From a virus, in IMG/VR virus record IMGVR_UViG_3300031669_000002, positions 1-64,000 of that record: a stretch of 64,000 nt of DNA; one strand, written 5' to 3'. This document shows, in pieces, positions 3,239-19,489 of this stretch (position 1 is the stretch's first letter; every line of letters begins with the position of its first letter). The position numbers were made by a program, and so were the translations under genes. The notes under the pieces are model-generated. The model made no database searches and was not told the origin of the DNA. It saw nothing but the letters and a program-made list of their open reading frames with translations.

Positions 3239-6001
3239 ATGTCATATATTGATGCAATATTAGATCGTGATAAAGACAAAATTTATGTAGTTGAACGAGA
3301 TAAAAAAGGTAAAAGAATTTATCAAGAATATTCGCCCGAATATATTTTTTACTATAATGATCCGAAAGGAAAGCATCAAACGGTCTATCGAACGCCCGTA
3401 AATAGATTTTCTACTAAATCTAATAAAGAATTTCGAAAGGAGTTAAAGATGCACAACGGCAAGAAAACATGGGAATCAGATTGTAATCCAGTATTTCGCT
3501 GTCTTGCAGAAAACTACATGGGGATTCCTTCTCCCAAGTTGCATACTTGTTTCTTAGACATTGAGTCAGACTTTGATATAGAGCAGGGCGGCTATGCTCC
3601 AGTAGACAATCCGTTTAATAAGATTACTGCTATCACAATATATCTTGACTGGTTAGACAAACTAATTACATTAGCTGTTCCTCCAAAAACATTGTCAATG
3701 GAATCTGCATTATTGATTGCAAATAAGTTTGATGATACATATTTGTTTGAAAAAGAAGCAGATATGTTAGATACATTCCTAAACTTAATTGAGGATGCAG
3801 ATATACTGACAGGGTGGAACTCGGGCGGTTACGATCTACCATATATTGTGGGTAGAATAATTAGATCTCTTGCAAAAGATGACCTGCGTCGTCTTTGTTT
3901 GTGGGATAAAATGCCCAAGGAACGTGTCTTTCAAAAGTATGGTACTGAGCAAAAAACATATGACTTAGTGGGGAGAGTTCATCTCGACTATATGGAATTG
4001 TATATCAATTATACATATGAAGAGCGACATAGCTTTTCATTAGATGCTATCGGAGAATACGAGTTAGGTGAGAGAAAAGTTGCTTATGATGGTTCGTTAG
4101 ATCAACTGTATAACCAAGACTTTTATAAGTTTCTTGATTACAACAGGCAAGACGTGGTTATCGTTGCTAAGTTAGATAAAAAACTAAAATTCTTAGACTT
4201 ATCAAACGAACTTGCACACGAAAACGCAGTATTGCTTCAAACAACAATGGGAGTAGTCGCATTAACTGATCAAGCTATTATCAATGAGGCTCACAGGAAA
4301 GGGTTTATTGTGCAAGATCGCACAAAAATACACACTGAGATAGAATACGATGATGACGGCAACGAAATAGAAAACGATGACGATAAGGCAGCAGGAGCGT
4401 ATGTTGCTTATCCCAAAGTAGGAATGCATCAGTGGATTGGCGCAATTGATATTAACTCACTGTATCCGTCAACAATTAGATCATTAAACATGGCGCCAGA
4501 AACTATTGTTGGGCAACTACGGCCAATAATGACAGATCAATATATCGCTAATAAGATGGCAGATAAAATTGTCAATGGCAAAAAAGTTAAGGGGTGCAAA
4601 TTTGCCCAAGCTTGGGAAGGATTATTTGGGTCGTTAGAATATACTTCTGTTATGAACATGGAAAAGGGAACAGAAATAACAATTGATTGGGAAGGCAGCA
4701 ATCAGCCAACTGTTCATACTGCTGATGAAGTATGGCGTCTTATCTTTGAGGGTGGTCAGAAATGGATGATCAGTGCTAATGGAACTATTTTTAGTTATGA
4801 GTTCGAAGGAATTATTCCTGGATTGTTAGCAGACTGGTATTCGGATAGAAAAGTGTTACAGGCAAAAAAGAAGGCGGCAACAACGCCGGAAGAAATTGCA
4901 TTCTGGGATAAACGTCAACATGTTCGCAAAATTCAATTGAACGCATTATATGGCGCATTACTCAACGTTGGTTGTAGGTTCCATGATCATAGGATTGGAC
5001 AAAGCACGACACTAACAGGCAGAATTATCGCCAGACATATGGATGCGTTTGTCAACGAAGCTATTACGGGAAAATACGAATATGACGGAGAAGCTATCAT
5101 ATACGGAGATACTGACTCAGTTTATTTCTCAGCGTGGCCATTGGTTAAAGATGAAGTTGCTGCTGGAAGAATGGAGTGGAATAAAGATATATGTATCCAG
5201 CTTTATGATATGATTGCAGAACAAGTAAATGAAAGTTTTCCTGCAATGATGGAAAAAGAATGTCACTGTCCACATAACCGCGGAGTAATTCGTGGAGGTC
5301 GAGAGTTAGTAGCATCTAACGGGATATTCATCACAAAGAAACGCTATGCAGTTTTGATATACGATTCTGAGGGAGTTAGGTTAGATCAACTTGACGAGCA
5401 CTCAGCTAAGAAGAAAAACGTTGAGTATGGTCTTGGTAAAATTAAGGCTATGGGGTTAGATCTAAAACGGTCAGATACTCCAAAGGTCGTGCAAGACTTT
5501 TTAAGTAGAATTTTACTTAACGCTTTGATGCATGTTCCTAAAGAGAAAATCATTGAGAACATCAAAGTGTTCAAAGAAACATTTGCTGCCATGCCAGCGT
5601 GGGAAAAAGGAACTCCCAAACGAGTAAATAACTTAACCAACTACATCGCAACAGAAGAGCGTGAAGGAAAGTCGGGTATGCCAGGACACGTTCGAGCAGC
5701 AATGAATTGGAATAACCTACGCAGAATGCACGGTGATAATTACTCAATGAAAATCGTAGATGGAATGAAGATCATTGTTTGTAAATTAAAATCGAATCCG
5801 ATGGGATATACTTCGGTTGCTTATCCGATTGACGTGTTGCACATACCGCAATGGTTTAAGGATTTACCGTTCGATAACGGTTTAATGGAATCTACGATAG
5901 TAGATAAGAAGGTTGAGAACCTATTGGGTGTTCTGAACTGGGACTTAACCAATAATACCCAAATCAGTAGCAAGTTTGACTCCTTATTCGAATTCGAATA
6001 A
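3239..6001 (+). CDS. Family B DNA polymerase (gp43-like)
   Basis: ExoI DIESD, ExoII GWNSGGYDLPYI, ExoIII YNRQDV, motif A DINSLYPS, motif B KIQLNALYG, motif C YGDTDS. Confidence 0.97.
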   Translation: MSYIDAILDRDKDKIYVVERDKKGKRIYQEYSPEYIFYYNDPKGKHQTVYRTPVNRFSTKSNKEFRKELKMHNGKKTWESDCNPVFRCLAENYMGIPSPKLHTCFLDIESDFDIEQGGYAPVDNPFNKITAITIYLDWLDKLITLAVPPKTLSMESALLIANKFDDTYLFEKEADMLDTFLNLIEDADILTGWNSGGYDLPYIVGRIIRSLAKDDLRRLCLWDKMPKERVFQKYGTEQKTYDLVGRVHLDYMELYINYTYEERHSFSLDAIGEYELGERKVAYDGSLDQLYNQDFYKFLDYNRQDVVIVAKLDKKLKFLDLSNELAHENAVLLQTTMGVVALTDQAIINEAHRKGFIVQDRTKIHTEIEYDDDGNEIENDDDKAAGAYVAYPKVGMHQWIGAIDINSLYPSTIRSLNMAPETIVGQLRPIMTDQYIANKMADKIVNGKKVKGCKFAQAWEGLFGSLEYTSVMNMEKGTEITIDWEGSNQPTVHTADEVWRLIFEGGQKWMISANGTIFSYEFEGIIPGLLADWYSDRKVLQAKKKAATTPEEIAFWDKRQHVRKIQLNALYGALLNVGCRFHDHRIGQSTTLTGRIIARHMDAFVNEAITGKYEYDGEAIIYGDTDSVYFSAWPLVKDEVAAGRMEWNKDICIQLYDMIAEQVNESFPAMMEKECHCPHNRGVIRGGRELVASNGIFITKKRYAVLIYDSEGVRLDQLDEHSAKKKNVEYGLGKIKAMGLDLKRSDTPKVVQDFLSRILLNALMHVPKEKIIENIKVFKETFAAMPAWEKGTPKRVNNLTNYIATEEREGKSGMPGHVRAAMNWNNLRRMHGDNYSMKIVDGMKIIVCKLKSNPMGYTSVAYPIDVLHIPQWFKDLPFDNGLMESTIVDKKVENLLGVLNWDLTNNTQISSKFDSLFEFE

Positions 6002-6837: not shown

Positions 6838-7065
6838 ATGGTTAGCGTATATAAAGAAGTTGAAGTTGAAATCGACATGTATGATATCGATACTGCTGAC
6901 TTAATCGAAGAATTAGAGCGTAGAAAGATTCCGGTAACGGATAAAGATATCCCTGTATATACGCAACTTAACGATCTCTATTTTGCATACTCTGTGGGGC
7001 AGCAGGACAGAGTAGATGCATTGCTTAAAGAATTATTTTACGATACAATAGGCCGAATTGCATGA
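6838..7065 (+). CDS. Hypothetical protein
   Basis: ORF packed between the clamp and the DpdA-like gene with a 4-nt overlap. Confidence 0.6.
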   Translation: MVSVYKEVEVEIDMYDIDTADLIEELERRKIPVTDKDIPVYTQLNDLYFAYSVGQQDRVDALLKELFYDTIGRIA

Positions 7066-8693
7066 CCAAAAAAATACAACAAGTTGATCTCACGACTAAA
7101 CAGGTAGGACCAAACGGAAAACCAAACACAGCAATTTATCTGCCTGCGTTGAGTTCGTTTTATTCTACTACCACTGCAAAATATAAAGACCCGACTTACT
7201 GGGACACAACTCGTATGCCCGCAGCGTTTGATAAAGGCATTGAAGGATTAGATTGGCTAAACAAAGAAGACAGTTACTTCTATTATAAGTGGTCGCTATA
7301 TTCTGCTGGTCATGCAAATATTGATGTGGCCAAGCCAGACTTTAAAGAGGCAATGATACGTGACCGTAATCGCACTGATTCGTTTATTCTTGGCGACAGC
7401 GGCGGATTCCAAATTGGTAAATTAGTATGGGAAGGTGATTGGAAAAATCCTGCTTGTCCTAAGGCACAGAAAAAACGTGAACAAGTTTTAGCTTGGTTAG
7501 AAGCATATATGGACTATGGCATGATTCTTGATATTCCAGTGTGGGCCTGCAAGAATCCAGATGCTGCTGAGAAGATTGGCATTGCTTCATATCAGGACGC
7601 AGTTGATGCAACGAGAATCAACAACGACTACTTTATTAAAAATCGTACAGGAGGATGTAAATTCCTAAATGTGCTTCAAGGTAACTCATATGAAGAAGCA
7701 GACGATTGGTATGAACAGATGAAGGATTATTGTGATCCAACAAAATATCCAGAAAATTATTTTGAAGGTTGGTCAATGGGTGGTCAACACGTTGCAGATC
7801 CAGAGCTTGCGTTACGCAGATTAGTAAACATCGTTCATGATGGATTATTGCAACAGGGAAAGCATGATTGGATTCACTTCTTAGGTATGGGTAAAGTGCC
7901 TTGGGGATGTTTCTTAACAGACGTGCAGAACTCGCTAAGAAAATACTGGAACCCAGATGTTACAATTAGTATGGACTCAGCATCCCCATTCTTAATGGTT
8001 GCAAACGGCGGTATCTATACGCATCTTGTGACTGAGGATCAGGGAAAATGGACAACCGTTATGGATGGCTCAGTTGATGATAAAAAATATTCAACAGATA
8101 CTCGTCCGTTTAGTGAGATTCTAAAAGAAAGTCGCGGGTATAAGAACTTTGATGAATCACCTATCAGCTTGCGATTACAAGGTAAAGATGTTTGTGTTTA
8201 TAAACCTGGCGATCTTAACCGAATCGGCAAAGAAGGAAGAACAAGCTGGGATATGTTGAGTTATGTAGTTCAAATGGGGCATAACGTATTTGCTCATATT
8301 GATTCAATTCAACGCGCAATTGGTAAATACCAAACAGAGGGAATATATCCAGCAGGGTTGGTTGAGCGGGAATTTTATATGCCTGATGGTGTTGTTGGCA
8401 GAGAGTTAGTAGATAAAATATTTGCGGCAAAGACTCGAGAAGAAGCATTAGCAATAATCGAATATCATTCTCGATACTTAGGCAAATTAGTAGGCGGTAG
8501 AGGTAACAAAGGCAGCAAACGGATGAATGCCGGAACACACTTCGGTAATCTTTTCGAAGTAGTAGATTCACAACAAGAGCCAAAGACTTTTGAGGAAACA
8601 TCAGAATTGTCCGAATATGAGGGCGAAACCGATAAGCGGTTAGATGCTCTTGAAACAGGAGTTGATTCTGAGTGTGATAATGTGCTAATATAA
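7062..8693 (+). CDS. dpdA: TGT-fold transglycosylase, probable DNA 7-deazaguanine insertase (DpdA-like)
   Basis: GDSGGFQ, LDIP, NVLQG, WSMGG, HFLG and SMDSASP TGT-family motifs; sits next to the polymerase/clamp and with folE/queD/queE/queC. Confidence 0.78.
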   Translation: MTKKIQQVDLTTKQVGPNGKPNTAIYLPALSSFYSTTTAKYKDPTYWDTTRMPAAFDKGIEGLDWLNKEDSYFYYKWSLYSAGHANIDVAKPDFKEAMIRDRNRTDSFILGDSGGFQIGKLVWEGDWKNPACPKAQKKREQVLAWLEAYMDYGMILDIPVWACKNPDAAEKIGIASYQDAVDATRINNDYFIKNRTGGCKFLNVLQGNSYEEADDWYEQMKDYCDPTKYPENYFEGWSMGGQHVADPELALRRLVNIVHDGLLQQGKHDWIHFLGMGKVPWGCFLTDVQNSLRKYWNPDVTISMDSASPFLMVANGGIYTHLVTEDQGKWTTVMDGSVDDKKYSTDTRPFSEILKESRGYKNFDESPISLRLQGKDVCVYKPGDLNRIGKEGRTSWDMLSYVVQMGHNVFAHIDSIQRAIGKYQTEGIYPAGLVEREFYMPDGVVGRELVDKIFAAKTREEALAIIEYHSRYLGKLVGGRGNKGSKRMNAGTHFGNLFEVVDSQQEPKTFEETSELSEYEGETDKRLDALETGVDSECDNVLI

Positions 8694-8696
8694 AGT

Positions 8697-9334
8697 ATGA
8701 CTAAAGAATTTAAACCAACATATCTTTATATCAAACGCCATACAGTGACTGGTTTATTATATTTCGGCAAAACAAACAGATCAGAGAAAACTTTACTTGA
8801 AGAATATAACGGATCTGGATTATATTGGCAATACCATCTTAAAGAACACGGCAGCAAAGTTGAAACTATTTGGTACTGTTTATTCACCGAGAAAGACGAA
8901 TTAGTTAAATTTGCGTTAATGTGTTCAGATCAATGGGATATTGTTAATGCTAGAGGAACTAACGGCAAGAAGATATGGGGGAATCTTCTTTACGAAAATG
9001 GATTATATGGTAATGGTAATGGAGGAGTCAATAAAGGTATTAGACACAAAAACATAAGCCACATAAAAATAAAGGAATAAAACTCGGACCACAATCTGAA
9101 GAACATCGTGCCAAAAACAAAGCAGCACAAAAAGGAATAAGTAGAAATAAAGGAATAAAAAGACCATCCCAATCTGAAAGAAACAAAGGTAATTCTTACG
9201 GAAAAGCAAATAAAGGAGTAAAACAAGAAATAGTAAAATGTCCGTATTGCTTAAAAGACGGAGGAATTTCTAATATGAAAAGATGGCATTTCGATAATTG
9301 TAGCAAACGTAAAGAAGTAAGGTGCAGTAAATAG
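8697..9334 (+). pseudogene. Frameshifted GIY-YIG-like homing endonuclease
   Basis: N-terminal YLYIKRH..GLLYFGKT to a stop at 9080. The -1 frame from about 9050 encodes NUMOD3-like repeats and CPYC..MKRWHFDNC to TAG at 9334. The shift falls in the A5 run at 9048-9052. Confidence 0.8.
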
Positions 9335-9388
9335 GATCTGATAACTGAGGGCAATAATCCGTTGACCGTAATTCAATTCCGAGAAACT

Positions 9389-9411
9389 TTCCTGGGTATT
9401 TTGCCCAGGAA
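9389..9411 (+). other. Stable hairpin upstream of the ino1 homolog
   Basis: TTCCTGGGT-ATTTT-GCCCAGGAA. Confidence 0.55.
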
Positions 9412-9435
9412 CAAAACATAAAAGGAAAGTAAAAA

Positions 9436-10665
9436 ATGTCTAAAAAAATCAAAGTAGCCGTAGTCGGTATAGGTAACTGTTTCTCTTCATTATATCAAGG
9501 TCTTGAATATTACAAAGACCACGACGAAGATGCAACAGGTGAAGCAATTCCAGGTGTTATGTTTGCACGAATCGGCGGCTACCATCCTGCAGATATTCAA
9601 GTCGTTGCAGCATTCGACGTTGATCGTCGCAAAGTAGGTCGTCCAACAGGCGAAGCAATATTTGCAGCTCCAAACTGTGCAAGAGTATTTTGCAAGGATG
9701 TTCCAGATGGTCCAGTAGTTCAAATGGGTCCTGTAATGGACGGCGTATCAGAACACATGCTAACAGAACCAGAACGTCACGGTTTTAGAATTTCAAATGA
9801 AGATGTGTGCGATGTTGATGCAGTGTTAAAAGCATCAGGCGCAGAAATCATTATCAATTATTTGCCAGTAGGTTCGCAAGACGCAACCGAGTGGTGGGCA
9901 AACAAAGCAATCGAGAATGGATTATCTTTCTTAAATTGTATTCCTGTATTATCAATAAATCACCCTAATTGGGAAGCAAAATTTATTGACGCTGGTATTC
10001 CATACATTGGGTCAGATATGAAGTCACAGTTCGGGGCATCAATTATGTCACAGATGCTACAAGAGTTGGCGTTTAGTCGCGGTATGGTAGTTGATTATCA
10101 CCAACAGTTAAATGTTGGCGGGAACACCGACTTCAATAATATGGAAGTCCAATCAAGACTCAAGCACAAAAAAGTTTCCAAGGAAAATGTTATTCGTGCT
10201 CAGAATGATTTGCGTCACATTGATGTAGACGAAGATGCACTGTTTGCTGGTCCAGCTACATTCATTCCTTACTTGCACGACAACAAGATTGCATATTTCA
10301 ACTTACACTTGCGTGGTTTTGGCGATGCTCCTGTAACAGTAGACATGAAGCTGTCTGTTCAGGATTCAGAAAACTCGGCTGGTGTGGTTATTGACGCAGT
10401 TCGTTATATTAGGGTTGCAAAAGAAATGGGGATCGTTGGTTGTTTGCGCGGACCATCTGCATTCACACAAAAATCTCCACCAACACAACTTTCATACGAT
10501 GACTCGTTGACAGAATGCAAAGCATTGGCCAAACGTCAGTTAACTGGTCTTACTTCAAGACAGATGACAAAGGAAGGTGCAAAAGCATTGGCGTGGGAAG
10601 AATACGAATCAGGTGGTATGGATTATTTGCGACTACTTGGATACGATAAGCACACGGGGGAATAA
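9436..10665 (+). CDS. ino1: myo-inositol-1-phosphate synthase (bacterial/archaeal type)
   Basis: VAVVGIGNCFSSL Rossmann start, FDVD..KVG, NYLPVGS, DMKSQ.GA, QLNVGGNTDF, KK.SK, DNK, DSENSAGVVIDA, KSPP. Confidence 0.92.
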   Translation: MSKKIKVAVVGIGNCFSSLYQGLEYYKDHDEDATGEAIPGVMFARIGGYHPADIQVVAAFDVDRRKVGRPTGEAIFAAPNCARVFCKDVPDGPVVQMGPVMDGVSEHMLTEPERHGFRISNEDVCDVDAVLKASGAEIIINYLPVGSQDATEWWANKAIENGLSFLNCIPVLSINHPNWEAKFIDAGIPYIGSDMKSQFGASIMSQMLQELAFSRGMVVDYHQQLNVGGNTDFNNMEVQSRLKHKKVSKENVIRAQNDLRHIDVDEDALFAGPATFIPYLHDNKIAYFNLHLRGFGDAPVTVDMKLSVQDSENSAGVVIDAVRYIRVAKEMGIVGCLRGPSAFTQKSPPTQLSYDDSLTECKALAKRQLTGLTSRQMTKEGAKALAWEEYESGGMDYLRLLGYDKHTGE

Positions 10666-11060
10666 TGGATATTGCATCGTTTGATATAGACGGCGTAATA
10701 TTTAACGGTCACGGGGTTCCAGGGATTTATCCTGGACCCAATGACATCATTATTACTGGTCGATCGTTTGAAGAAGAAAAAGAAACATACGAAATGCTTG
10801 TAGCAAGGGGCATAATGAACCCTGTCTATTTTAATCCTCTTCCGTTTAATGAAAAAACACGAGCAACTTCTGGGTTACATAAAGCAGTAACTCTTAATAG
10901 GTTGTTAGAGTCTGGACTAAACATAACACATCACTTTGAAGATGATACTGTTCAAGCATACACTATTAAAAAGTTAACTCCGGTCTATGTGGTGATTATA
11001 GAAAATCCTGCAGTGCCAAAAGAAAATAGGAGACAAGATGAACTCATTGCCAAAGCATAA
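10665..11060 (+). CDS. HAD-superfamily phosphatase
   Basis: Motif I FDIDGV, II ITGRS, III K (LHKA), IV FEDD; TAATG coupling to ino1. Confidence 0.85.
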   Translation: MDIASFDIDGVIFNGHGVPGIYPGPNDIIITGRSFEEEKETYEMLVARGIMNPVYFNPLPFNEKTRATSGLHKAVTLNRLLESGLNITHHFEDDTVQAYTIKKLTPVYVVIIENPAVPKENRRQDELIAKA

Positions 11061-11898
11061 AATCGTTATCAATTATAGTGGGGGATTAGATAGTCTAATC
11101 ATGCGGCATTATGCACAAATAAACTATCCTGATTCAGAGATTGTCTGCGTCTATTTTAAGCATGGTGCAGCATCAGAAGCAAAAGAATTATCAACGCTAC
11201 CAGACTATGTGCAAGTTCGCACAATTGATTGGCTAAACGATAAATGCAAGCCAGTTGCTAAGAAAGATGATCCATTTGCGGGTGCGATCTATATTCCTGG
11301 TCGTAACCTGGTATTTGCAGCATTAGCAGCGTGTCAGGAAGTTGCAAACGAAGTGTGGATGGGAACAGTATGGGATGAAGATAATCCCAAGGGCACAGAT
11401 AAGAATGAACACTTTAGATACGAAACAAGTCAACTGTTATCTTATGTTCTTTCGCCATTTATTGACGGAGTTAAGGTTCGTTTTCCGTTTGTAGAATTAG
11501 AATGGACCAAAGTTGAATCAGTTCGTTGGGCGTTAGCGAACGGTCTTTCGAAAGAAGAAATATTAAACTCAGTGTCGTGTTGGGAGCATACTGACGGCAA
11601 ACCCTGCGGTCAATGCAAACAGTGTGTCAAACGAGCATTAGTATTTAATCTCAACGGATTTAAGGAAGAGTGCAAGGTAGACCCATTAGAAGGACAGTTT
11701 GGGTTAGATTTGTTAGAGCAGTATCTTACTGCTTATGTCGAGAATCCAGAAGCAACAAAAGCAAATCGAGATGAGAATAATGTGGTCAATATGATTATTT
11801 CTGCGTATCCTGACTTACCTATAAAAACAAAAAACGTAGTGCGACCATACTTATATGATTCTATTAAGATCGACCACGAAGGAAGGGAGTTTAAATGA
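11038..11898 (+). CDS. queC: QueC-like ATP pyrophosphatase (7-cyano-7-deazaguanine synthase family, divergent)
   Basis: YSGGLDS PP-loop, YIPGRNLVF, Zn site SC..PCGQCKQC; the canonical YPDC segment is replaced by GTDKNEHF. Confidence 0.85.
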   Translation: MNSLPKHKIVINYSGGLDSLIMRHYAQINYPDSEIVCVYFKHGAASEAKELSTLPDYVQVRTIDWLNDKCKPVAKKDDPFAGAIYIPGRNLVFAALAACQEVANEVWMGTVWDEDNPKGTDKNEHFRYETSQLLSYVLSPFIDGVKVRFPFVELEWTKVESVRWALANGLSKEEILNSVSCWEHTDGKPCGQCKQCVKRALVFNLNGFKEECKVDPLEGQFGLDLLEQYLTAYVENPEATKANRDENNVVNMIISAYPDLPIKTKNVVRPYLYDSIKIDHEGREFK

Positions 11899-12143
11899 TA
11901 TTAGATATGAATGAACGACGCAAGGAGTATCTTAAAGATGCTGCTTACTCTTTAGGCTACGACGAACAGCAAGAGTTTAAGAAAATGATAGCAAAGAAAA
12001 AACTCGACTTTGCATTTTCTAAAGACTTTAGAGAAGAGTGTGGGAGAGCTCAGTTACTTGAAATGCATCCTGCACTTCAAGATTTATATAATCAATACAA
12101 AGAGATGGAAGCACTCTTATTGAAAGGAGAAGAAATAAAATGA
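11895..12143 (+). CDS. Hypothetical protein
   Basis: ATGA overlaps at both ends. Confidence 0.6.
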   Translation: MILDMNERRKEYLKDAAYSLGYDEQQEFKKMIAKKKLDFAFSKDFREECGRAQLLEMHPALQDLYNQYKEMEALLLKGEEIK

Positions 12144-12706
12144 ATCCAATAAGCAAAACACAAATATATCCAAGAGAATACGCAAACAGAGTCGACGTAG
12201 TAGACAATGCGTCTTTCTTTCGCGGGTTAGAAGCAGAACATACACCAGCATACGGCATGGAAACGATCTTTGTTGTGGGTGTTCAGCCATTTAACGAAAT
12301 ATTAGGTTGGGTTGAGAAATATAGCACAGGCGACAAGCCAATTAGACACGTTTGCTTTGGTGCAAACAAGTCGTTTAAACCAGAAACAAACGACGACTGG
12401 ATTAATTGGGTAAGCATGATTAGATCGTTGCTCAACGAAGACTTGTGGGTTACATTAGATCTTGATTCGTCGTATTCCGAAACATTGCTTGAATTTGGGC
12501 TATGCGAATACCGAAGATTCATACCTATTATATCGGTTACCTTGCCTTATATAGGTATTTTCAATTATAATACAGTAGTAAAGATTGCAGATTTGGGATT
12601 TGATAATTCAAACCCAGGAGTATGGTGCCACAGTTTGCATGATTTAATGGATAAAGATAAGTTTACTCCTTGGGACAAATACCAAGAAGACAGGTTAGTA
12701 AAATAA
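12140..12706 (+). CDS. Hypothetical protein within the modification cluster (alpha/beta)
   Basis: 188-aa ORF with GGAG RBS; motifs EHTPAYG, HVCFGANKSF, WVTLD, GVWCH. Confidence 0.7.
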   Translation: MNPISKTQIYPREYANRVDVVDNASFFRGLEAEHTPAYGMETIFVVGVQPFNEILGWVEKYSTGDKPIRHVCFGANKSFKPETNDDWINWVSMIRSLLNEDLWVTLDLDSSYSETLLEFGLCEYRRFIPIISVTLPYIGIFNYNTVVKIADLGFDNSNPGVWCHSLHDLMDKDKFTPWDKYQEDRLVK

Positions 12707-12712
12707 TTTGAA

Positions 12713-13255
12713 ATGGTATCCGAAACATATTATGTCTATGCATATTTGAGGAACAAAGATTCTGCAATAGCAAAAGCAGGTACACCTTATTATATTGGCA
12801 AAGGATATGGTAGGAGAGCACACCAGCAACATAGAAACAAGATTAATGGTAGAGGAGTTCATACTCCGTACGATAAATCATTTGTTGTATTTCTTGAAAA
12901 GAATTTAACTGAGGTTGGTGCATTTGCCATAGAACGAAGATTAGTGCGTTGGTATGGAAGAAAAGATTTAGCAACTGGAATACTGCACAATAGAACAGAC
13001 GGCGGAGAAGGTGGCACAGGTAGCATTCCGTGGAGTAAAGGTAAAACATTAGGTCCGCAGTCAGAAGAAAGAAGAAAGAATATATCTATTGGAAATAAAG
13101 GTAAAACTAAGGGCATTAAGCGTGGTCCGCAGAAAAATCCAGCCAATAAGAAATATGAAGAAGTTACTTGTCCTTATTGCAATAAAGTAGGAACAGGAAA
13201 TGTAATGAAAAGGTTTCATTTTAATAACTGTAAACGGAGAATAGAACATGAATGA
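12713..13255 (+). CDS. GIY-YIG-family homing endonuclease with NUMOD3-like repeats
   Basis: YYVYAYLR..PYYIGKG.G.RA, L.N.TDGGEG, C-terminal CPYC..MKRFHFNNC. Confidence 0.85.
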   Translation: MVSETYYVYAYLRNKDSAIAKAGTPYYIGKGYGRRAHQQHRNKINGRGVHTPYDKSFVVFLEKNLTEVGAFAIERRLVRWYGRKDLATGILHNRTDGGEGGTGSIPWSKGKTLGPQSEERRKNISIGNKGKTKGIKRGPQKNPANKKYEEVTCPYCNKVGTGNVMKRFHFNNCKRRIEHE

Positions 13256-13481
13256 AAAAACAGCAGTTCATAGAGTAAAAGTAGCAAGTTACAACGTTAA
13301 GTATCTTCGCATGAAGCCAGAAGTAAAAACAATTTTTGACGATCTTGAAGAGTTCGAGACATACGTTAAGTTACAATATCCGCAGGTTGCGTTTAATCCT
13401 GCAGACCTTAATAAGAACTCAAGCCCAACATGGCAAAAGTATCTTCGCGCTAAACGCAGAGAGGCTACCAATAAGAGATGA
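13248..13481 (+). CDS. Hypothetical basic protein
   Basis: Coupled ORF. Confidence 0.6.
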   Translation: MNEKTAVHRVKVASYNVKYLRMKPEVKTIFDDLEEFETYVKLQYPQVAFNPADLNKNSSPTWQKYLRAKRREATNKR

Positions 13482-13954
13482 TTGAAGAAAATACCGGCAC
13501 TTATGCAAAGCTTCTTCCATCTGAAGACACAAGAAACAAAATAGCGTTAATTATGACAATGTTCAATTTAGAAAATCATACGAGTCCGCGAGATTTACAT
13601 GTAACACTGATTTATTCTCGTTCTGAATGTAACATTGTCAAAGAAACAGTTGGTCTACCAGTAAGAGCAAACGGCAAAGCATTTAGTATATTTGCAAATG
13701 CTAATGGTGGGAATTGTTTAGTTGTTGAATTAGAAAGCGAAGAAATGCAATCACTGCACAAGAGATTTATAACAGATCACGGCGCGACACACAACTATGA
13801 TTCATACAAGCCGCACTTAACATTAAGTTATGACTATAACAGCACAGATGTGCCAAGCGACACAATGCTTGAACATTTCTATCATCTGTGTTTTGACCAA
13901 GTTGTAGTAGAACCGTTAAGCTTTGATTGGATTCCAAATGAACAAGAAGATTAG
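13478..13954 (+). CDS. acb1: 2H phosphoesterase, anti-CBASS Acb1 (T4 gp57B)-like
   Basis: Two HxT motifs (HVTLIYSR, PHLTLSY), GATHNYDSY and C-terminal EPLSFDW, paralleling T4 Acb1 (HSTICYSR, GATHDFDDYTPHITLSY, EPLKLDW). Confidence 0.82.
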   Translation: MIEENTGTYAKLLPSEDTRNKIALIMTMFNLENHTSPRDLHVTLIYSRSECNIVKETVGLPVRANGKAFSIFANANGGNCLVVELESEEMQSLHKRFITDHGATHNYDSYKPHLTLSYDYNSTDVPSDTMLEHFYHLCFDQVVVEPLSFDWIPNEQED

Positions 13955-13962
13955 GGAAAATA

Positions 13963-14649
13963 ATGAGCACATCTAAAAAAATAAAAAAGAGGTTAGTGGA
14001 AGCAAATGCAAGATTCTATGCTAACGATAATATTTCAGAATACATCAAAGACGGAGAATTAGATTCGTTAATTGAAGAACTTGGAGAAAAATTCCAGGGT
14101 GTTCTTGAAAGTTTAGTTATCGACACAGAGAATGATCCGAATTCAAACGGGACAGCGCATAGGCTCGCAAAGATGTATGTAAAAGAGATAATGAGTGGTC
14201 GATATAACCCGGCACCCAAGAATACTTCTTTCCCCAATTCTAGCGAAAATCGTTATGAAGGAATGTTGGTTGTGAGATCAGAGATTAGATCAATATGCAG
14301 TCACCATCACCAACCAGTAAATGGGGTTGCGTATATTGGAATTATATCTGCAGACAAACTAATTGGCCTGTCAAAATATACTCGAATTGCTCAATGGTGT
14401 GCGATGCGTGGAACACTACAAGAAGAATTGTGCGGGACAATATCCGACGAAATCATTAAAGCAACGGGAAGCGAAAATGTGGGAGTATATTTAAAACTAT
14501 CTCATGGTTGTTGTGAGAATAGAGGCATCCTAGCGCACGATAGCACCACACAGACATCTGTGTTGCGAGGTGCATTCTTTACTGAAGCCACCGCCAGAAA
14601 AGAATTCTTCGATAACATACAAATTCAAGAAATGACAAAGAGGTATTAA
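13963..14649 (+). CDS. folE: GTP cyclohydrolase I
   Basis: TAHRLAKMY, SICSHHHQP, GLSKYTRI, TLQEEL, HGCCENRG. Confidence 0.95.
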   Translation: MSTSKKIKKRLVEANARFYANDNISEYIKDGELDSLIEELGEKFQGVLESLVIDTENDPNSNGTAHRLAKMYVKEIMSGRYNPAPKNTSFPNSSENRYEGMLVVRSEIRSICSHHHQPVNGVAYIGIISADKLIGLSKYTRIAQWCAMRGTLQEELCGTISDEIIKATGSENVGVYLKLSHGCCENRGILAHDSTTQTSVLRGAFFTEATARKEFFDNIQIQEMTKRY

Positions 14650-15414: not shown

Positions 15415-15675
15415 ATGAGTTTGTCATTAGATTGGACAGAAGAACAAGCAAAAGAATTTTTACGGAAAGTAACGGGTAAACCTATTCGAGCTTTGGAGGG
15501 CGAAGAGTATGCTCAAATAAGAACATTAGTTGCTTTGATGGATCCAGAATATGTTAATAGTAGTAATCAGCGCAGTGTCACGGAAACATTTAAGATAGGT
15601 AACAATATGTATCAAGTTCACTCGTTTAGTGACGGAGAAGAACCAATAATACACCTAATGTTGGAGAAAGAATGA
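15415..15675 (+). CDS. Hypothetical protein
   Basis: GAGGAG RBS before ATG at 15415. Confidence 0.55.
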   Translation: MSLSLDWTEEQAKEFLRKVTGKPIRALEGEEYAQIRTLVALMDPEYVNSSNQRSVTETFKIGNNMYQVHSFSDGEEPIIHLMLEKE

Positions 15676-16055
15676 GTAATTCAGGGCTAAATGCATATCA
15701 AGACGAACTATTAACTATTCTAATAGAAGAGTGTGGAGAAGCAATTCAAGAAGCATGTAAGATAAACCGGTTTGGCATAGATGCTAAGAGTCACCATATT
15801 GCCGGATCTAACCATAAAGCTTGCTTAATTCAGGAGTTAGGTGATATAATAGCTGTAGTAGAGTTACTCATTGATTCTGATATGGGAATTACCGAAGAAT
15901 TATTGGATATGGCAAAGGAACGCAAGCTCAAAAAAATCGGCAAATGGATGACGGCCGAGAAACCAGAAATTGAGTTTGATGGGGTGGCCGACGTAATGTC
16001 AAAGACTCTTTCTTTAGCACAACGCCAATTAGATAATTATAAGGCAGCAAAATAA
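15672..16055 (+). CDS. MazG-like NTP pyrophosphohydrolase
   Basis: EECGEAIQEACK..QELGDIIAVV (ExxE/ExxD). Confidence 0.8.
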   Translation: MSNSGLNAYQDELLTILIEECGEAIQEACKINRFGIDAKSHHIAGSNHKACLIQELGDIIAVVELLIDSDMGITEELLDMAKERKLKKIGKWMTAEKPEIEFDGVADVMSKTLSLAQRQLDNYKAAK

Positions 16056-16366
16056 TGGATAGCACTATTGTATATGCGTTTTGCCAAGAATACGGCATAG
16101 CAAAATTTAATGTAGAATATAAAACCAACGAGCTTAGTCGATTTGGCATTAACGTTAATGTTGCAGGAGAGGCTACATGTAAGTTAGAGATGCCGCAAGA
16201 TCTATTATATAAATTAATTGAAGATCAACAAGACTCAAAGATATTACTCGAAGAGAGAAAACAAGAACGATTATTACGAGACAAGTACGAAAGTGTCAAG
16301 AAGGCATACGATGAATATCAATTGCTTATTACACTAACACAAGAGGAACAAGACAATGAGTTATAA
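16055..16366 (+). CDS. Hypothetical protein
   Basis: Coupled ORF with a C-terminal coiled coil. Confidence 0.6.
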   Translation: MDSTIVYAFCQEYGIAKFNVEYKTNELSRFGINVNVAGEATCKLEMPQDLLYKLIEDQQDSKILLEERKQERLLRDKYESVKKAYDEYQLLITLTQEEQDNEL

Positions 16367-16907
16367 GTGGGTAATAGATAAAGAGTTTCATTTTGAAATG
16401 GGTCACCGTGTATGGGCACAAAAGCTCGAACATGAGCATTTGAGTCTTAGCACAGAGTGCGCCTGTAAACATTTGCATGGCCACAGTTATGCTATTAAAG
16501 TATTTTTGGGTGCGGACAATCTTGACAATAGTGCAATGGTTACTGACTTTAAGAATCTAAACTTTATGAAACAGTTTGTAGATGATGAGTTGGACCACCG
16601 TATGATGTTGGATATAAATGATCCTCTTTTTAAGAGGATAACAGGATGGGAACCCCCAGAAGAAATTAGAGATTTTACAAATTTTGGTTCTTATTTGCGT
16701 GGTTGCACTTTTAAAGATGGAACGCCGTGCCTGCGCGAAGAAGATTTATTATTAGATAGTTTTGTATTAGTGAATTTTGTGCCAACATCAGAGAATATTT
16801 GCAAATACCTTAAACATTATGCACAAGCACAGTTGGGCACTGTTGCAAAGGTAACAGCGGTTGAATTGTGGGAGACGAAAAAAAGTCATTGCCGTTACGA
16901 AGATTAA
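16356..16907 (+). CDS. queD: 6-carboxy-5,6,7,8-tetrahydropterin synthase
   Basis: F.FEMGHR, CKHLHGHSY, LDH, PTSEN, WET. Confidence 0.93.
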   Translation: MSYKWVIDKEFHFEMGHRVWAQKLEHEHLSLSTECACKHLHGHSYAIKVFLGADNLDNSAMVTDFKNLNFMKQFVDDELDHRMMLDINDPLFKRITGWEPPEEIRDFTNFGSYLRGCTFKDGTPCLREEDLLLDSFVLVNFVPTSENICKYLKHYAQAQLGTVAKVTAVELWETKKSHCRYED

Positions 16908-16961: not shown

Positions 16962-17858
16962 ATGTTTGGATTTGTGTATGTTTGGACGAACCTAATCGAT
17001 GGTAAGAAATATGTTGGGTCGCACGAAGGACTCATTGAAGATGGATATATCGGGTCAGGAAAATATTTTAATAATGCTATCAATAAACACGGCATTGAGA
17101 ATTTTATTCGAGAAATATTAGAGGCAGGAGAATTTGAATCCCGCAATGCGTTGTTCGATAGGGAACAATTTTGGTTAGATTCATTCAATGCTGCAAGAGA
17201 TCCTAACTGGTATAATATAGCAGAGATTGCAGGCGGTGGCGGTGATACACGTATTGGTTGGTCCGAAGAGAGATTGGATGAATTTAAGAATCAAATTGCG
17301 GCGATATGGGCCGATCGAACAGACGATGAAATAAAAGAGATTGTTCAAAAACGACTCGCAACAATAGATAACGATCCGAATTGGAAGGAAAGAGTCGGAG
17401 ACAAGATGCGCGAAACTTACGCAAAAAAAGGAAAAGATTTTTTACTTGCTCGTGCTCAAAAAACATTAGAAAAATATGGTCCTGAAAAAAGATCAGCGGC
17501 AGTTAAAATGGGCAAAGAAAAGATGGGACCAGAAAAAAGAAAAGAAGCAGCAAGAAAGGCAGCAGCCAATACGACGCCCGATGTTAGAGCAGAGGCAGCA
17601 AGAAAGGCCGTAAAAACTAAAAAAGATAAGCCATTGGAAGAAAAATTAGCAACGGCCGAATTAAAGAGAAAAGCAATGACGGGTAAATTATCTGGTGCAA
17701 AAAATGGGCGAGCAAAACAAGTATGTGCTGCCGGAAAAGTGTATAATACTCTTAAAGAAGCAATGGCAGGAGTAGGTATTTCCGAACCAACATTATACAA
17801 AAGAATCAAGAGCAACAATTTTAACGATTACTATTACATAGATAAGGAACAAAAATGA
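16962..17858 (+). CDS. GIY-YIG homing endonuclease (Seg-like)
   Basis: GFVYVWTNLIDGKKYVGSH..YIGSG, ERE..W, YN; NUMOD-like repeats and a C-terminal HTH. Confidence 0.9.
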   Translation: MFGFVYVWTNLIDGKKYVGSHEGLIEDGYIGSGKYFNNAINKHGIENFIREILEAGEFESRNALFDREQFWLDSFNAARDPNWYNIAEIAGGGGDTRIGWSEERLDEFKNQIAAIWADRTDDEIKEIVQKRLATIDNDPNWKERVGDKMRETYAKKGKDFLLARAQKTLEKYGPEKRSAAVKMGKEKMGPEKRKEAARKAAANTTPDVRAEAARKAVKTKKDKPLEEKLATAELKRKAMTGKLSGAKNGRAKQVCAAGKVYNTLKEAMAGVGISEPTLYKRIKSNNFNDYYYIDKEQK

Positions 17859-18766
17859 TTAGATTAGGAGAACCAATATTTAGATCTATACAGGGCGAGG
17901 GAGATTTAACTGGTCGGCTAAGTATCTGGGTAAGATTTGGCGGGTGCAACTTAAGATGTCCGGGATTCTTCCAGAAAGATCCAACCGACTCTTCTACTTG
18001 GATAAAACCATTAGCTCTTGATCCAAAAGAATATAAATTATTAAATGATCTACCTGTCATTCCTGTGGGATGTGATTCTTTATATTCAATTGATCCAAGA
18101 TTTAAGCACTTGTGGCTTACTTATCCGTCTGCAAAAGAACTATCAAAAGACATAACTGCTTTATTGTATAATGGCCAATGGGAACATCCTGTAACTAAAA
18201 ATAAAATAGATTTATGTTTTACTGGCGGAGAACCAATGCTTAATCAGAAATCAATGGTTGAAATTTTAGCAGAACTTATGTTTTTAGATCCAACTATGTC
18301 CACTAAGATTCAAATTGAAACCAACGGAACAAAAGTTATTAGGTCACAAAAAACAAACACACTAAGAGTTGCAGAGTCAATCGTTCCGGTCTTTGCTGAT
18401 TATATAGTTGCAAATAATATAGATTTGCACTTCAATATTTCTCCAAAGTTATACCATGTGTCGGGAGAAGAAGAAGCAGTAAATTACGAAGTAATTAAAC
18501 AATATTATGATTTAACTAAGGATGGCATACTTAAATTTGTTGTCAATAACGACGACAGGGCATGGAAAGAATTAAACAACCACGTAAAGATATTGCGAGA
18601 CGGTGGGATAGAGTATCCAATCTACATTATGCCGGTTGGTGCAACCAAAGAACAACAAGAAGATAGTAAAATAATTTCTTCTATTGCAAATAGGGCAATC
18701 AACGAAGGATACAATGTAAGTGGCAGATTACATGCTATTTTATTTGGTAATGGGATAGGAACATAG
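17855..18766 (+). CDS. queE: 7-carboxy-7-deazaguanine synthase (radical SAM)
   Basis: F.SIQGEG..GR.SIWVRFGGCNLRC, GCDS, FTGGEP, IETNGT, ISPK, YIMP, RLH. Confidence 0.92.
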   Translation: MIRLGEPIFRSIQGEGDLTGRLSIWVRFGGCNLRCPGFFQKDPTDSSTWIKPLALDPKEYKLLNDLPVIPVGCDSLYSIDPRFKHLWLTYPSAKELSKDITALLYNGQWEHPVTKNKIDLCFTGGEPMLNQKSMVEILAELMFLDPTMSTKIQIETNGTKVIRSQKTNTLRVAESIVPVFADYIVANNIDLHFNISPKLYHVSGEEEAVNYEVIKQYYDLTKDGILKFVVNNDDRAWKELNNHVKILRDGGIEYPIYIMPVGATKEQQEDSKIISSIANRAINEGYNVSGRLHAILFGNGIGT

Positions 18767-19021: not shown

Positions 19022-19489
19022 GTGGAACATATAAAATATACACAAGAGCAGTTTGATTTAGATGTAACAAAGCTGATCAAACAATTAGAAGACGACGATT
19101 TTAAGCCAGAACTCATTATAGGTATTTTAAGAGGAGGAGCAATTCCTGCTATCCACCTGAGTCATATATTAAACTGCCCCGTAAAAGTTATTGAGTGGTC
19201 GACGAGAGATTCATTAATCAAAGACCACAAAGCATTAGATAAGATTGCTATTATGGCAGAGCATGGGATGAAGGTTCTTATCATTGATGACATTGTTGAT
19301 TCAGGAAAAACAATCAGTGAAATTAAACAGCGCATGTTTGACACCGAGGATAACATAAGATATGCATCGCTATGGTATAATCCCAGTCAAGATACCGAAG
19401 TAGATTTTTGGTGTAATTCGGTGAATCGCGCAACAGATGAACGTTGGGTTATTTTCCCGTGGGAAAAACAAATTATAGGAGAAGAGTAA
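19022..19489 (+). CDS. Type I purine phosphoribosyltransferase (Gpt-like)
   Basis: GILRGG, PRPP motif VLIIDDIVDSGKT, C-terminal WVIFPWE. Confidence 0.9.
   Translation: MEHIKYTQEQFDLDVTKLIKQLEDDDFKPELIIGILRGGAIPAIHLSHILNCPVKVIEWSTRDSLIKDHKALDKIAIMAEHGMKVLIIDDIVDSGKTISEIKQRMFDTEDNIRYASLWYNPSQDTEVDFWCNSVNRATDERWVIFPWEKQIIGEE

Follow-up and report, generated by a model that had tools for sequence, protein, structure and literature searches.

The stretch of DNA analyzed here (the window) comprises 64,000 nucleotides, positions 1 to 64,000 of IMG/VR virus record IMGVR_UViG_3300031669_000002, and is part of a 178-kb record from an uncultured T4-like phage. It has a cassette of three genes that encode an INO1 protein of the myo-inositol-phosphate synthase (MIPS) family, a HAD phosphatase and a QueC-like enzyme. 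The subject of this report is the possibility, real, testable and apparently unpublished, that this cassette leads to a cyclitol-bearing DNA base. FolE, QueD, QueE, QueC-family and DpdA-like genes are co-located, which means that the gene set of phage 7-deazaguanine DNA modification is present; on this gene content, the region is a phage 7-deazaguanine DNA-modification cluster. The initial annotation had named ino1, HAD, queC-like and dpdA-like genes with folE, queD and queE downstream, and these identities are correct. The features are listed below.

3239-6001, + strand: family-B DNA polymerase (polB), upstream of the cluster
7062-8693, + strand: DpdA-like guanine/7-deazaguanine transglycosylase, 543 aa, with a tRNA-guanine transglycosylase (TGT) fold and without the CxCxxC zinc motif
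8697-9335, + strand: frameshifted GIY-YIG/NUMOD3 homing endonuclease, seen by three-frame translation; not a pathway member
9436-10665, + strand: INO1, MIPS family, 409 aa (PF01658)
10665-11060, + strand: capless (C0) HAD phosphatase, 131 aa, from HAD motifs and predicted fold (phrog_415)
11038-11898, + strand: QueC-family ATP-dependent enzyme, 286 aa (PF06508)
12713-13255, + strand: HNH-type endonuclease (phrog_314/655)
13478-13954, + strand: Acb1 anti-CBASS phosphodiesterase (PF23474, E 1e-27)
13963-14649, + strand: FolE, GTP cyclohydrolase I (PF01227, E 3.7e-34)
15672-16055, + strand: MazG-like nucleoside triphosphate pyrophosphohydrolase (PF03819, E 6.9e-4; phrog_4856, E 6.8e-17)
16356-16907, + strand: QueD, 6-carboxy-tetrahydropterin synthase of the PTPS family (PF01242, E 1e-26)
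16962-17858, + strand: SegE-like GIY-YIG endonuclease, a homing endonuclease
17855-18766, + strand: QueE-like radical-SAM 7-carboxy-7-deazaguanine (CDG) synthase (phrog_2076, E 2.8e-46; PF13353)
19022-19489, + strand: purine-type phosphoribosyltransferase (PRTase) (PF00156, E 1.2e-16)

The three open reading frames of the cassette are present on the + strand at 9436-10665, 10665-11060 and 11038-11898, as had been annotated, and their tight coupling can be read in the sequence. Positions 10663-10667 read GAATAATGGAT, a TAATG junction in which the final A of the INO1 stop codon TAA is also the first A of the HAD ATG. The QueC-like gene starts with the ATG at 11038 and overlaps the HAD gene, which has its stop codon at 11058-11060, by 23 nt; this overlap couples the translation of the two genes. 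The cassette had also been placed just after dpdA. The dpdA-like gene is upstream but is not adjacent, since the broken homing endonuclease at 8697-9335 lies between them. A scan of the region for promoters and terminators gave counts that were not above those in shuffled sequence.

The INO1 protein scores 76.8 bits against Pfam Inos-1-P_synth (PF01658), where the cut-off is 27, and matches phrog_33138 with an E-value of 1.8e-172. Its best solved relative is M. tuberculosis Ino1 (1GR0; residues 2-356 aligned, E 7.6e-85, 289 bits) and it has the DxKSQ, NVGGNxDF and DSxNSAG catalytic motifs. Ari2 (6K96; E 4.5e-52, 181 bits) ranks second among the solved relatives and has an Ala in place of the DxKSQ lysine that is present in INO1. 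The protein belongs to the MIPS family; the score of 314.2 bits against the NCBIfam equivalog TIGR03450 is below the cut-off of 638, therefore MIPS activity is regarded as probable and not as proven.

The only profile that the HAD protein matches is phrog_415 (E 2.9e-9). It has no match in Pfam or NCBIfam, and a profile built from it has no significant match in PDB or Pfam. The HAD motifs D7-x-D9-G-V, T31-G-R-S34, K73 and E-D93-D94 are invariant in 26 homologues. The AlphaFold2 (AF2) model has a pLDDT of 91 and its best Foldseek matches are capless HAD phosphatases, namely the T4 PNKP phosphatase domain (5UJ0), lipin/Pah2, VSP, GmhB and KdsC, which have a probability of 1.00 with E-values of only about 1e-3.

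The QueC-like protein is the single PF06508 match in the whole record. It scores 52.6 bits against this Pfam family (cut-off 22), and 47.8 bits against the NCBIfam equivalog TIGR00364, which is below the cut-off of 150.3. The protein was checked against the catalytic signature from Libby et al. 2026 (PMC13329287). In E. coli QueC, which carries out preQ0 synthesis, Y35 (in YxQxHxxE), Y131 (in YPDC) and Y189 are essential (PMC13329287). The QueC-like protein keeps SGGLDS (SGGxDS), IPGRN (VPxRN) and the zinc site C181-x8-C190-x2-C193-x2-C196. The YxQxHxxE motif is replaced by H42-G-A-A-S-E, with H42 at the position of Y35; YPDC is replaced by G-T-D-K (119-122) and Y189 by W182. By these residues, the substrate pocket is remodelled and the enzyme is outside the canonical QueC signature. 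QueC-like proteins linked to INO1 have a His at the Y35 equivalent, whereas relatives from loci that lack INO1 have Ile or Leu. The family tree groups nearly all INO1-linked members in a single clade (SH-aLRT 92); L045 is the sole exception, since L049 is actually linked to INO1. The C-terminal extension was considered as a feature specific to the INO1-linked proteins and was rejected, since relatives that lack INO1 are of similar length.

Identification of the DpdA-like protein relies on a fold search, since the sequence searches gave nothing: there is no match for the 543-aa protein in Pfam, NCBIfam, PHROGs or PDB sequences, and the TGT profile PF01702 has no match in this protein or elsewhere in the genome. 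The AF2 model has a pLDDT of 82, and the top 50 Foldseek matches in PDB are all tRNA-guanine transglycosylases with a probability of 1.00. Across 36 sequences there is no variation in the motifs LGDSGGFQ (D112), LDIP (D157), GGQ (240-242) and FDCASP (D305). Cysteines 132, 199 and 378 are also invariant and are not arranged as the CxCxxC zinc motif of tRNA TGT. Single-linkage clustering joins the protein with the TGT/DpdA family of Stenotrophomonas phage Moby. The family is very abundant in metagenomes, where 6931 proteins match at E <= 0.001, a large number of them with an identity of about 55%. A tblastn search of GenBank phages (E <= 1e-5) found relatives in only 13 records; 11 of these are PA5oct-like Pseudomonas jumbo phages and the others are Sinorhizobium phage Phosso and Vibrio phage 2.275.O.

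The cassette recurs in other phages. A megablast search of the region against GenBank phages gave no useful match. Phage Moby has the gene order folE-ino1-HAD-queC-TGT-queE, with identities to the window of 64, 48 and 49% for INO1, HAD and QueC-like, and 32 and 31% for FolE and QueE. An IMG/VR search with the QueC-like alignment yielded about 20 more loci that have INO1-HAD immediately before the QueC-like gene, with DpdA next to them. The polB genes of these loci are 24-82% identical, there are two DpdA sequence types, and the positions of FolE, QueD and QueE vary. A wider scan showed that the module is widespread, with INO1 relatives encoded on at least 564 IMG/VR contigs.

The genomic frames of INO1 were counted in 83 non-identical phage INO1 loci using neighbors within 3 kb. 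The arrangement [DpdA]-INO1-HAD-QueC-like (G-type) is found in 23 loci, which include cultured Stenotrophomonas Menderavirus phages. Moby, Mendera and IME-SM1 are examples of Stenotrophomonas phages that bear the cassette. The co-occurrence of ino1 with dpdA and queC elsewhere, which the initial annotation had proposed to survey, is thus found in very divergent phages. The arrangement ADDT (amino acid:DNA transferase)-INO1-HAD-P-loop kinase (PK3) accounts for 35 loci, and f47-INO1-HAD-5-hmdU DNA kinase (HMUDK) for 22. The remaining 3 loci are left without a class solely because a contig end cuts them or the kinase is located just past 3 kb. The frames are mutually exclusive (0/83 mixed) and every INO1 locus with usable flanks has such neighbors. 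In 80/83 loci INO1 has a base-modification gene at a distance of no more than 3 kb, usually as its immediate neighbor, and HAD adjoins INO1 in nearly all 83. In each frame, INO1-HAD is between, or adjoins, a transferase (DpdA, ADDT or f47) and an ATP-dependent activator (QueC-like, PK3 or HMUDK). The module is not specific to the 7-deazaguanine pathway in which it was first annotated, since 57/83 loci have it within hydroxymethyl-pyrimidine hypermodification clusters, such as those of Caulobacter phage Cr30 and Ralstonia phage RP13. Loci with INO1 only had been considered as evidence against a link to DNA; this was reversed once their neighbors were annotated as pyrimidine-modification genes.

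In the first pyrimidine arrangement PF18724 (ADDT) is upstream of INO1 and PF18751 (P-loop nucleotide kinase 3) is downstream of HAD, and the second has PF18723 (5-hmdU DNA kinase) and f47. The ADDT match in Cr30 has 180 bits and the HMUDK match in RP13 has 161 bits; QueC and FolE have no match in the records of these two phages, of which the RP13 record has a title that calls it nearly complete. Neither ADDT nor HMUDK is present in any of the G-type genomes tested, the record of the window included. The f47 protein (369 aa) is always encoded beside HMUDK next to INO1, as in L009 (f47 8013-9122, HMUDK 11337-12467). It has no Pfam match and hhalign found no relation to ADDT. PHROG 17781 (795 aa) covers f47 and an HMUDK-like part, which suggests that fused f47-HMUDK forms exist.

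The INO1 tree interleaves these contexts, and at least five switches between guanine and pyrimidine types are forced by its starred branches. INO1 of the window is 89% identical to that of L006, 83% to that of L004 (a pyrimidine-type locus) and 61% to that of L032. L032 comes from a closer phage relative, with identities to the window of 77% for polB, 69% for DpdA, 68% for HAD and 75% for QueC-like. From these values, it appears that INO1 was exchanged independently of these other genes. Because there are three exclusive frames and at least five context switches, and because the QueC-like proteins linked to INO1 fall almost entirely into a single clade, INO1-HAD appears to be a portable module that donates a cyclitol for the hypermodification of DNA bases and is not specific to 7-deazaguanine.

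The cassette also has variants. L037 and L057 have INO1-methyltransferase-QueC-like without HAD (methyltransferase at 9401-9997 and 9384-10007, respectively), and L047 has INO1-QueC-like followed by a GT1-family glycosyltransferase (10789-12186). These variants look like further tailoring.

Eight natural 7-deazaguanine derivatives have been described in DNA (dPreQ0, dADG, dG+, dPreQ1, mdPreQ1, fdPreQ1, dDG and dCDG), and none of them bears a sugar alcohol (PMC6884629, PMC10516641). The window is the same as known phage 7-deazaguanine systems in having FolE, QueD, QueE, a QueC-family enzyme and a TGT-fold DpdA-like protein beside replication genes, and in having tailoring genes next to the core, like DpdL/M/N. 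It differs in the MIPS and HAD pair between DpdA and QueC, in its non-canonical QueC, and in its 543-aa DpdA, which lacks a Pfam TGT match and the zinc motif. The main texts of PMC6884629 and PMC10516641 do not mention inositol, Stenotrophomonas phages or Cr30.

Related chemistry is found in several systems. Cap9 (type IV CBASS) and QatC (QatABCD) are QueC-family ligases which couple the carboxyl of a 7-deazaguanine with the N-terminus of a protein (bioRxiv 10.1101/2025.04.06.647259; PMC13279940; PMC13329287). They share with the window the QueC scaffold with its SGGxDS loop, a TGT-family partner and, as proposed here, the transfer of CDG to a nucleophile other than ammonia. However, they belong to bacterial defence and use a protein amine, whereas the window has a phage DNA-modification cluster with a proposed small-molecule hydroxyl; the comparison is one at the level of the family. 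Thymidine hypermodification in phages ViI, M6 and PaMx11 uses a 5-hmdU DNA kinase and an aGPT-Pplase/amino acid:DNA transferase, and gp247 of ViI (aGPT-Pplase2/ADDT) uses the hydroxyl of serine (PMC8989533). The logic is the same, with ATP-dependent activation followed by substitution by a free nucleophile; in contrast, the record of the window has no ADDT or HMUDK, and the activated group would be an acyl-adenylate on a purine analogue. The arabinosyl-5-hydroxycytosine pathway of RB69 and DLP3 uses a sugar-phosphate enzyme and a small HAD phosphatase for DNA glycosylation (PMC13326640). This is the same pairing of a sugar-phosphate-forming enzyme with a small HAD, the two HADs being likened by role, but the sugar and the base are different and attachment relies on a glycosyltransferase. 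The actinobacterial Ino1, with the mycothiol route Ino1-MshA-MshA2, has the same INO1 catalytic motifs and the same sequence of synthase then phosphatase, and the GT1 family seen in L047 includes MshA. The INO1 of the window differs in being encoded by a phage and in its score under the equivalog cut-off, and the named hosts of its cultured relatives are Proteobacteria. Genes for mycothiol or phosphatidylinositol were not seen.

In the literature searched, no paper links inositol to phage DNA. Within it, 7-deazaguanine, inositol, phage and DpdA never occur together in one paper, and neither do aGPT-Pplase and inositol. The DLP6 paper and a search of the Menderavirus literature gave no data on DNA modification or restriction resistance for the phages that bear the cassette.

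In the proposed pathway, INO1 would cyclize glucose-6-phosphate to inositol phosphate and HAD would strip the phosphate. The QueC-like enzyme would adenylate the carboxyl of CDG in the manner of QueC. A hydroxyl of the cyclitol would then attack the CDG acyl-adenylate, replacing ammonia or acting besides it, to give an inosityl ester. The DpdA-like enzyme would swap guanine in DNA for the bulky inosityl base, and the modified base would shield the DNA against host nucleases. In an alternative order, coupling could take place on dCDG that is already in the DNA. The electrophile in QueC is the CDG acyl-adenylate, and in the pyrimidine pathways it is a phosphorylated hydroxymethyl group. Since the known chemistries of both types make an electrophilic carbon that is open to a free nucleophile, we infer by analogy that the supply of a nucleophile (the cyclitol) to an activated base is the most economical explanation for INO1-HAD.

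The initial annotation had allowed the link to be an ester or an amide. An amide by way of an aminocyclitol was rejected for want of an aminotransferase or inositol dehydrogenase: the GFO_IDH_MocA (inositol dehydrogenase) and DegT aminotransferase families were not found in the 178-kb record, which is about half a genome. With the QueC-like enzyme as ligase, an ester link would be expected. It is quite possible, and offered here as a tentative reading, that the region is a 7-deazaguanine cluster with a plugged-in cyclitol-donor module in which the QueC-like enzyme makes the ester and DpdA inserts the base. The more general statement, that in this phage and the Menderavirus phages myo-inositol is ester-linked to the 7-carboxyl of 7-deazaguanine by a repurposed QueC and that INO1-HAD is a universal donor exchanged horizontally across three activation chemistries (QueC adenylation, a P-loop kinase with ADDT, and 5-hmdU DNA kinase with f47), is possible and is also put forward tentatively. 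We give a cyclitol on a modified DNA base a higher probability than the QueC-like enzyme being the ligase with an ester link, and the QueC-ester mechanism is the least secure step.

Several points weigh against the ester pathway. The 178-kb record has a CheckV completeness of 51%, roughly half a genome, and most contigs in the count of frames are fragments. To our knowledge an ester-linked DNA base has no precedent, and such a base may be labile. The product of INO1 could be another cyclitol, since the protein scores under the NCBIfam equivalog cut-off. It is possible that the substrate of HAD is a nucleotide, since it is of the PNKP-phosphatase type, and NT5C and HAD_PNKP occur in deazaguanine clusters that lack INO1. 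The residues specific to INO1-linked QueC-like proteins track one clade and are inseparable from shared descent. Most of the deviations, including YPDC to GTDK and the C-terminal extension, are common to sister clades that lack INO1, and the QueC-like protein of those clades is the only QueC seen in their own FolE/QueD/QueE/DpdA clusters; therefore, the enzyme could be no more than a divergent synthase of preQ0 or ADG. In that case the cyclitol could still reach the DNA, but the inositol or inositol phosphate would be attached elsewhere in the pathway: to dCDG, dADG or dPreQ0 once inserted, or to a different atom or base, by the DpdA-like enzyme or by an unrecognized small open reading frame. 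This is unlikely, even with the shared pocket changes in its favor. It would fit with DpdA being directly upstream of INO1 in most G-type loci, and with the pyrimidine frames, where the cyclitol would join the DNA after replication and so provide a parallel for a DNA-level step here. However, the INO1-linked G-type loci share no conserved gene beyond DpdA, INO1, HAD and QueC-like, and both the translational coupling of HAD to the QueC-like gene and the separate clade of INO1-linked enzymes with a His at the mouth of the pocket weigh against this reading.

The pair may also have no role in DNA modification. The initial annotation had offered an osmolyte, lipid or virion glycan as the use of the inositol, and INO1-HAD could be a metabolic module that makes an inositol osmolyte, diverts host glucose-6-phosphate or supplies a precursor for a surface or virion glycan. 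Its closeness to DNA-modification genes would then result from both being in a plastic early-gene region near T4-like replication genes; all loci are near such genes, for example polB, clamp, clamp loader, UvsX and gp41, and the pair has three sets of neighbors without a single conserved partner. In the Ps15 paper, the MIPS gene is annotated as a bacterial-type acquisition and is listed apart from the queuosine cluster (PMC9025141). Against this, a base-modification gene is within the 3 kb in all loci other than the three unclassified ones, and there is no INO1 locus in a neutral context among those with usable flanks. The common arrangements place the pair between the transferase and the activator, the adjacency survives at least five context switches, and there is translational coupling to the QueC-like gene. 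The threefold association with DNA modification weakens the metabolic alternative, which is still a live rival although an improbable one. Less probable again is that INO1 makes another carbocycle, or that the PNKP-type HAD acts on nucleotides or DNA ends (for example in dGMP depletion), so that the cassette changes a sugar or nucleotide pool with no decoration of a base. The INO1 score of 314 against 638 bits and the rank of Ari2, which forms a five-membered cyclitol phosphate, are consistent with another product. The HAD fold is nearest to nucleic-acid and lipid phosphatases, an NT5C-type HAD is upstream of the QueC-like gene in loci that lack INO1, and the purine PRTase and the MazG-like enzyme point to nucleotide-level steps. 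However, the match to M. tuberculosis Ino1 exceeds that to Ari2 (289 vs 181 bits), INO1 keeps the DxKSQ lysine, and HAD travels with INO1 in all three frames and not with nucleotide genes.

If a cyclitol-bearing base exists, DNA modification would gain a new chemical class, and with INO1-HAD as a universal donor there would be a whole family of inositol-modified bases. This would bear on restriction and CRISPR evasion, on sequencing artefacts in environmental phage DNA and on polyol-accepting QueC-type ligase tools. The idea can be tested in cultured carriers: the guanine type is represented by Stenotrophomonas Menderavirus phages, the pyrimidine type by Caulobacter phage Cr30 and Ralstonia phage RP13.

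The cluster also has a PRTase and a MazG-like enzyme. The matches of the PRTase to xanthine/HGPRT models are under the cut-offs, and the gene recurs in clusters L032, L035, L040, L045, L052 and others. It is possible, from its family, that the MazG-like protein is an enzyme that clears canonical dNTPs. Recurrence of the PRTase together with the MazG-like enzyme suggests a nucleotide-level route (base to nucleotide, with dGTP clearing) beside DpdA. ToyH of toyocamycin biosynthesis is a parallel for a nucleotide-level route.

QueC-like genes in loci that lack INO1 have a methyltransferase, an NT5C-type HAD or a PRTase upstream. In L060-L064 and L068-L072 a SAM-dependent methyltransferase (PF13489/PF08241) is directly upstream of the QueC-like gene (~10001) and DpdA is downstream, and in L065-L067 and L073 an NT5C-type HAD is directly upstream. 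These arrangements may mark other undescribed 7-deazaguanine derivatives.

The deazaguanine cluster has three homing endonuclease genes, at 8697-9335 (broken), 12713-13255 and 16962-17858. The GIY-YIG N-terminal part of the broken gene is at 8697-9080, and NUMOD3-like repeats with a Cys/His tail continue in the -1 frame to 9335; the -1 frameshift is near an A-run at about 9060-9080. In L006 and L032 this gene is absent and DpdA abuts INO1. Small open reading frames, the HNH-type endonuclease and Acb1 are located between the QueC-like gene and FolE. Acb1 is directly before FolE, and L032 and L033 have the same order o77-Acb1-FolE.

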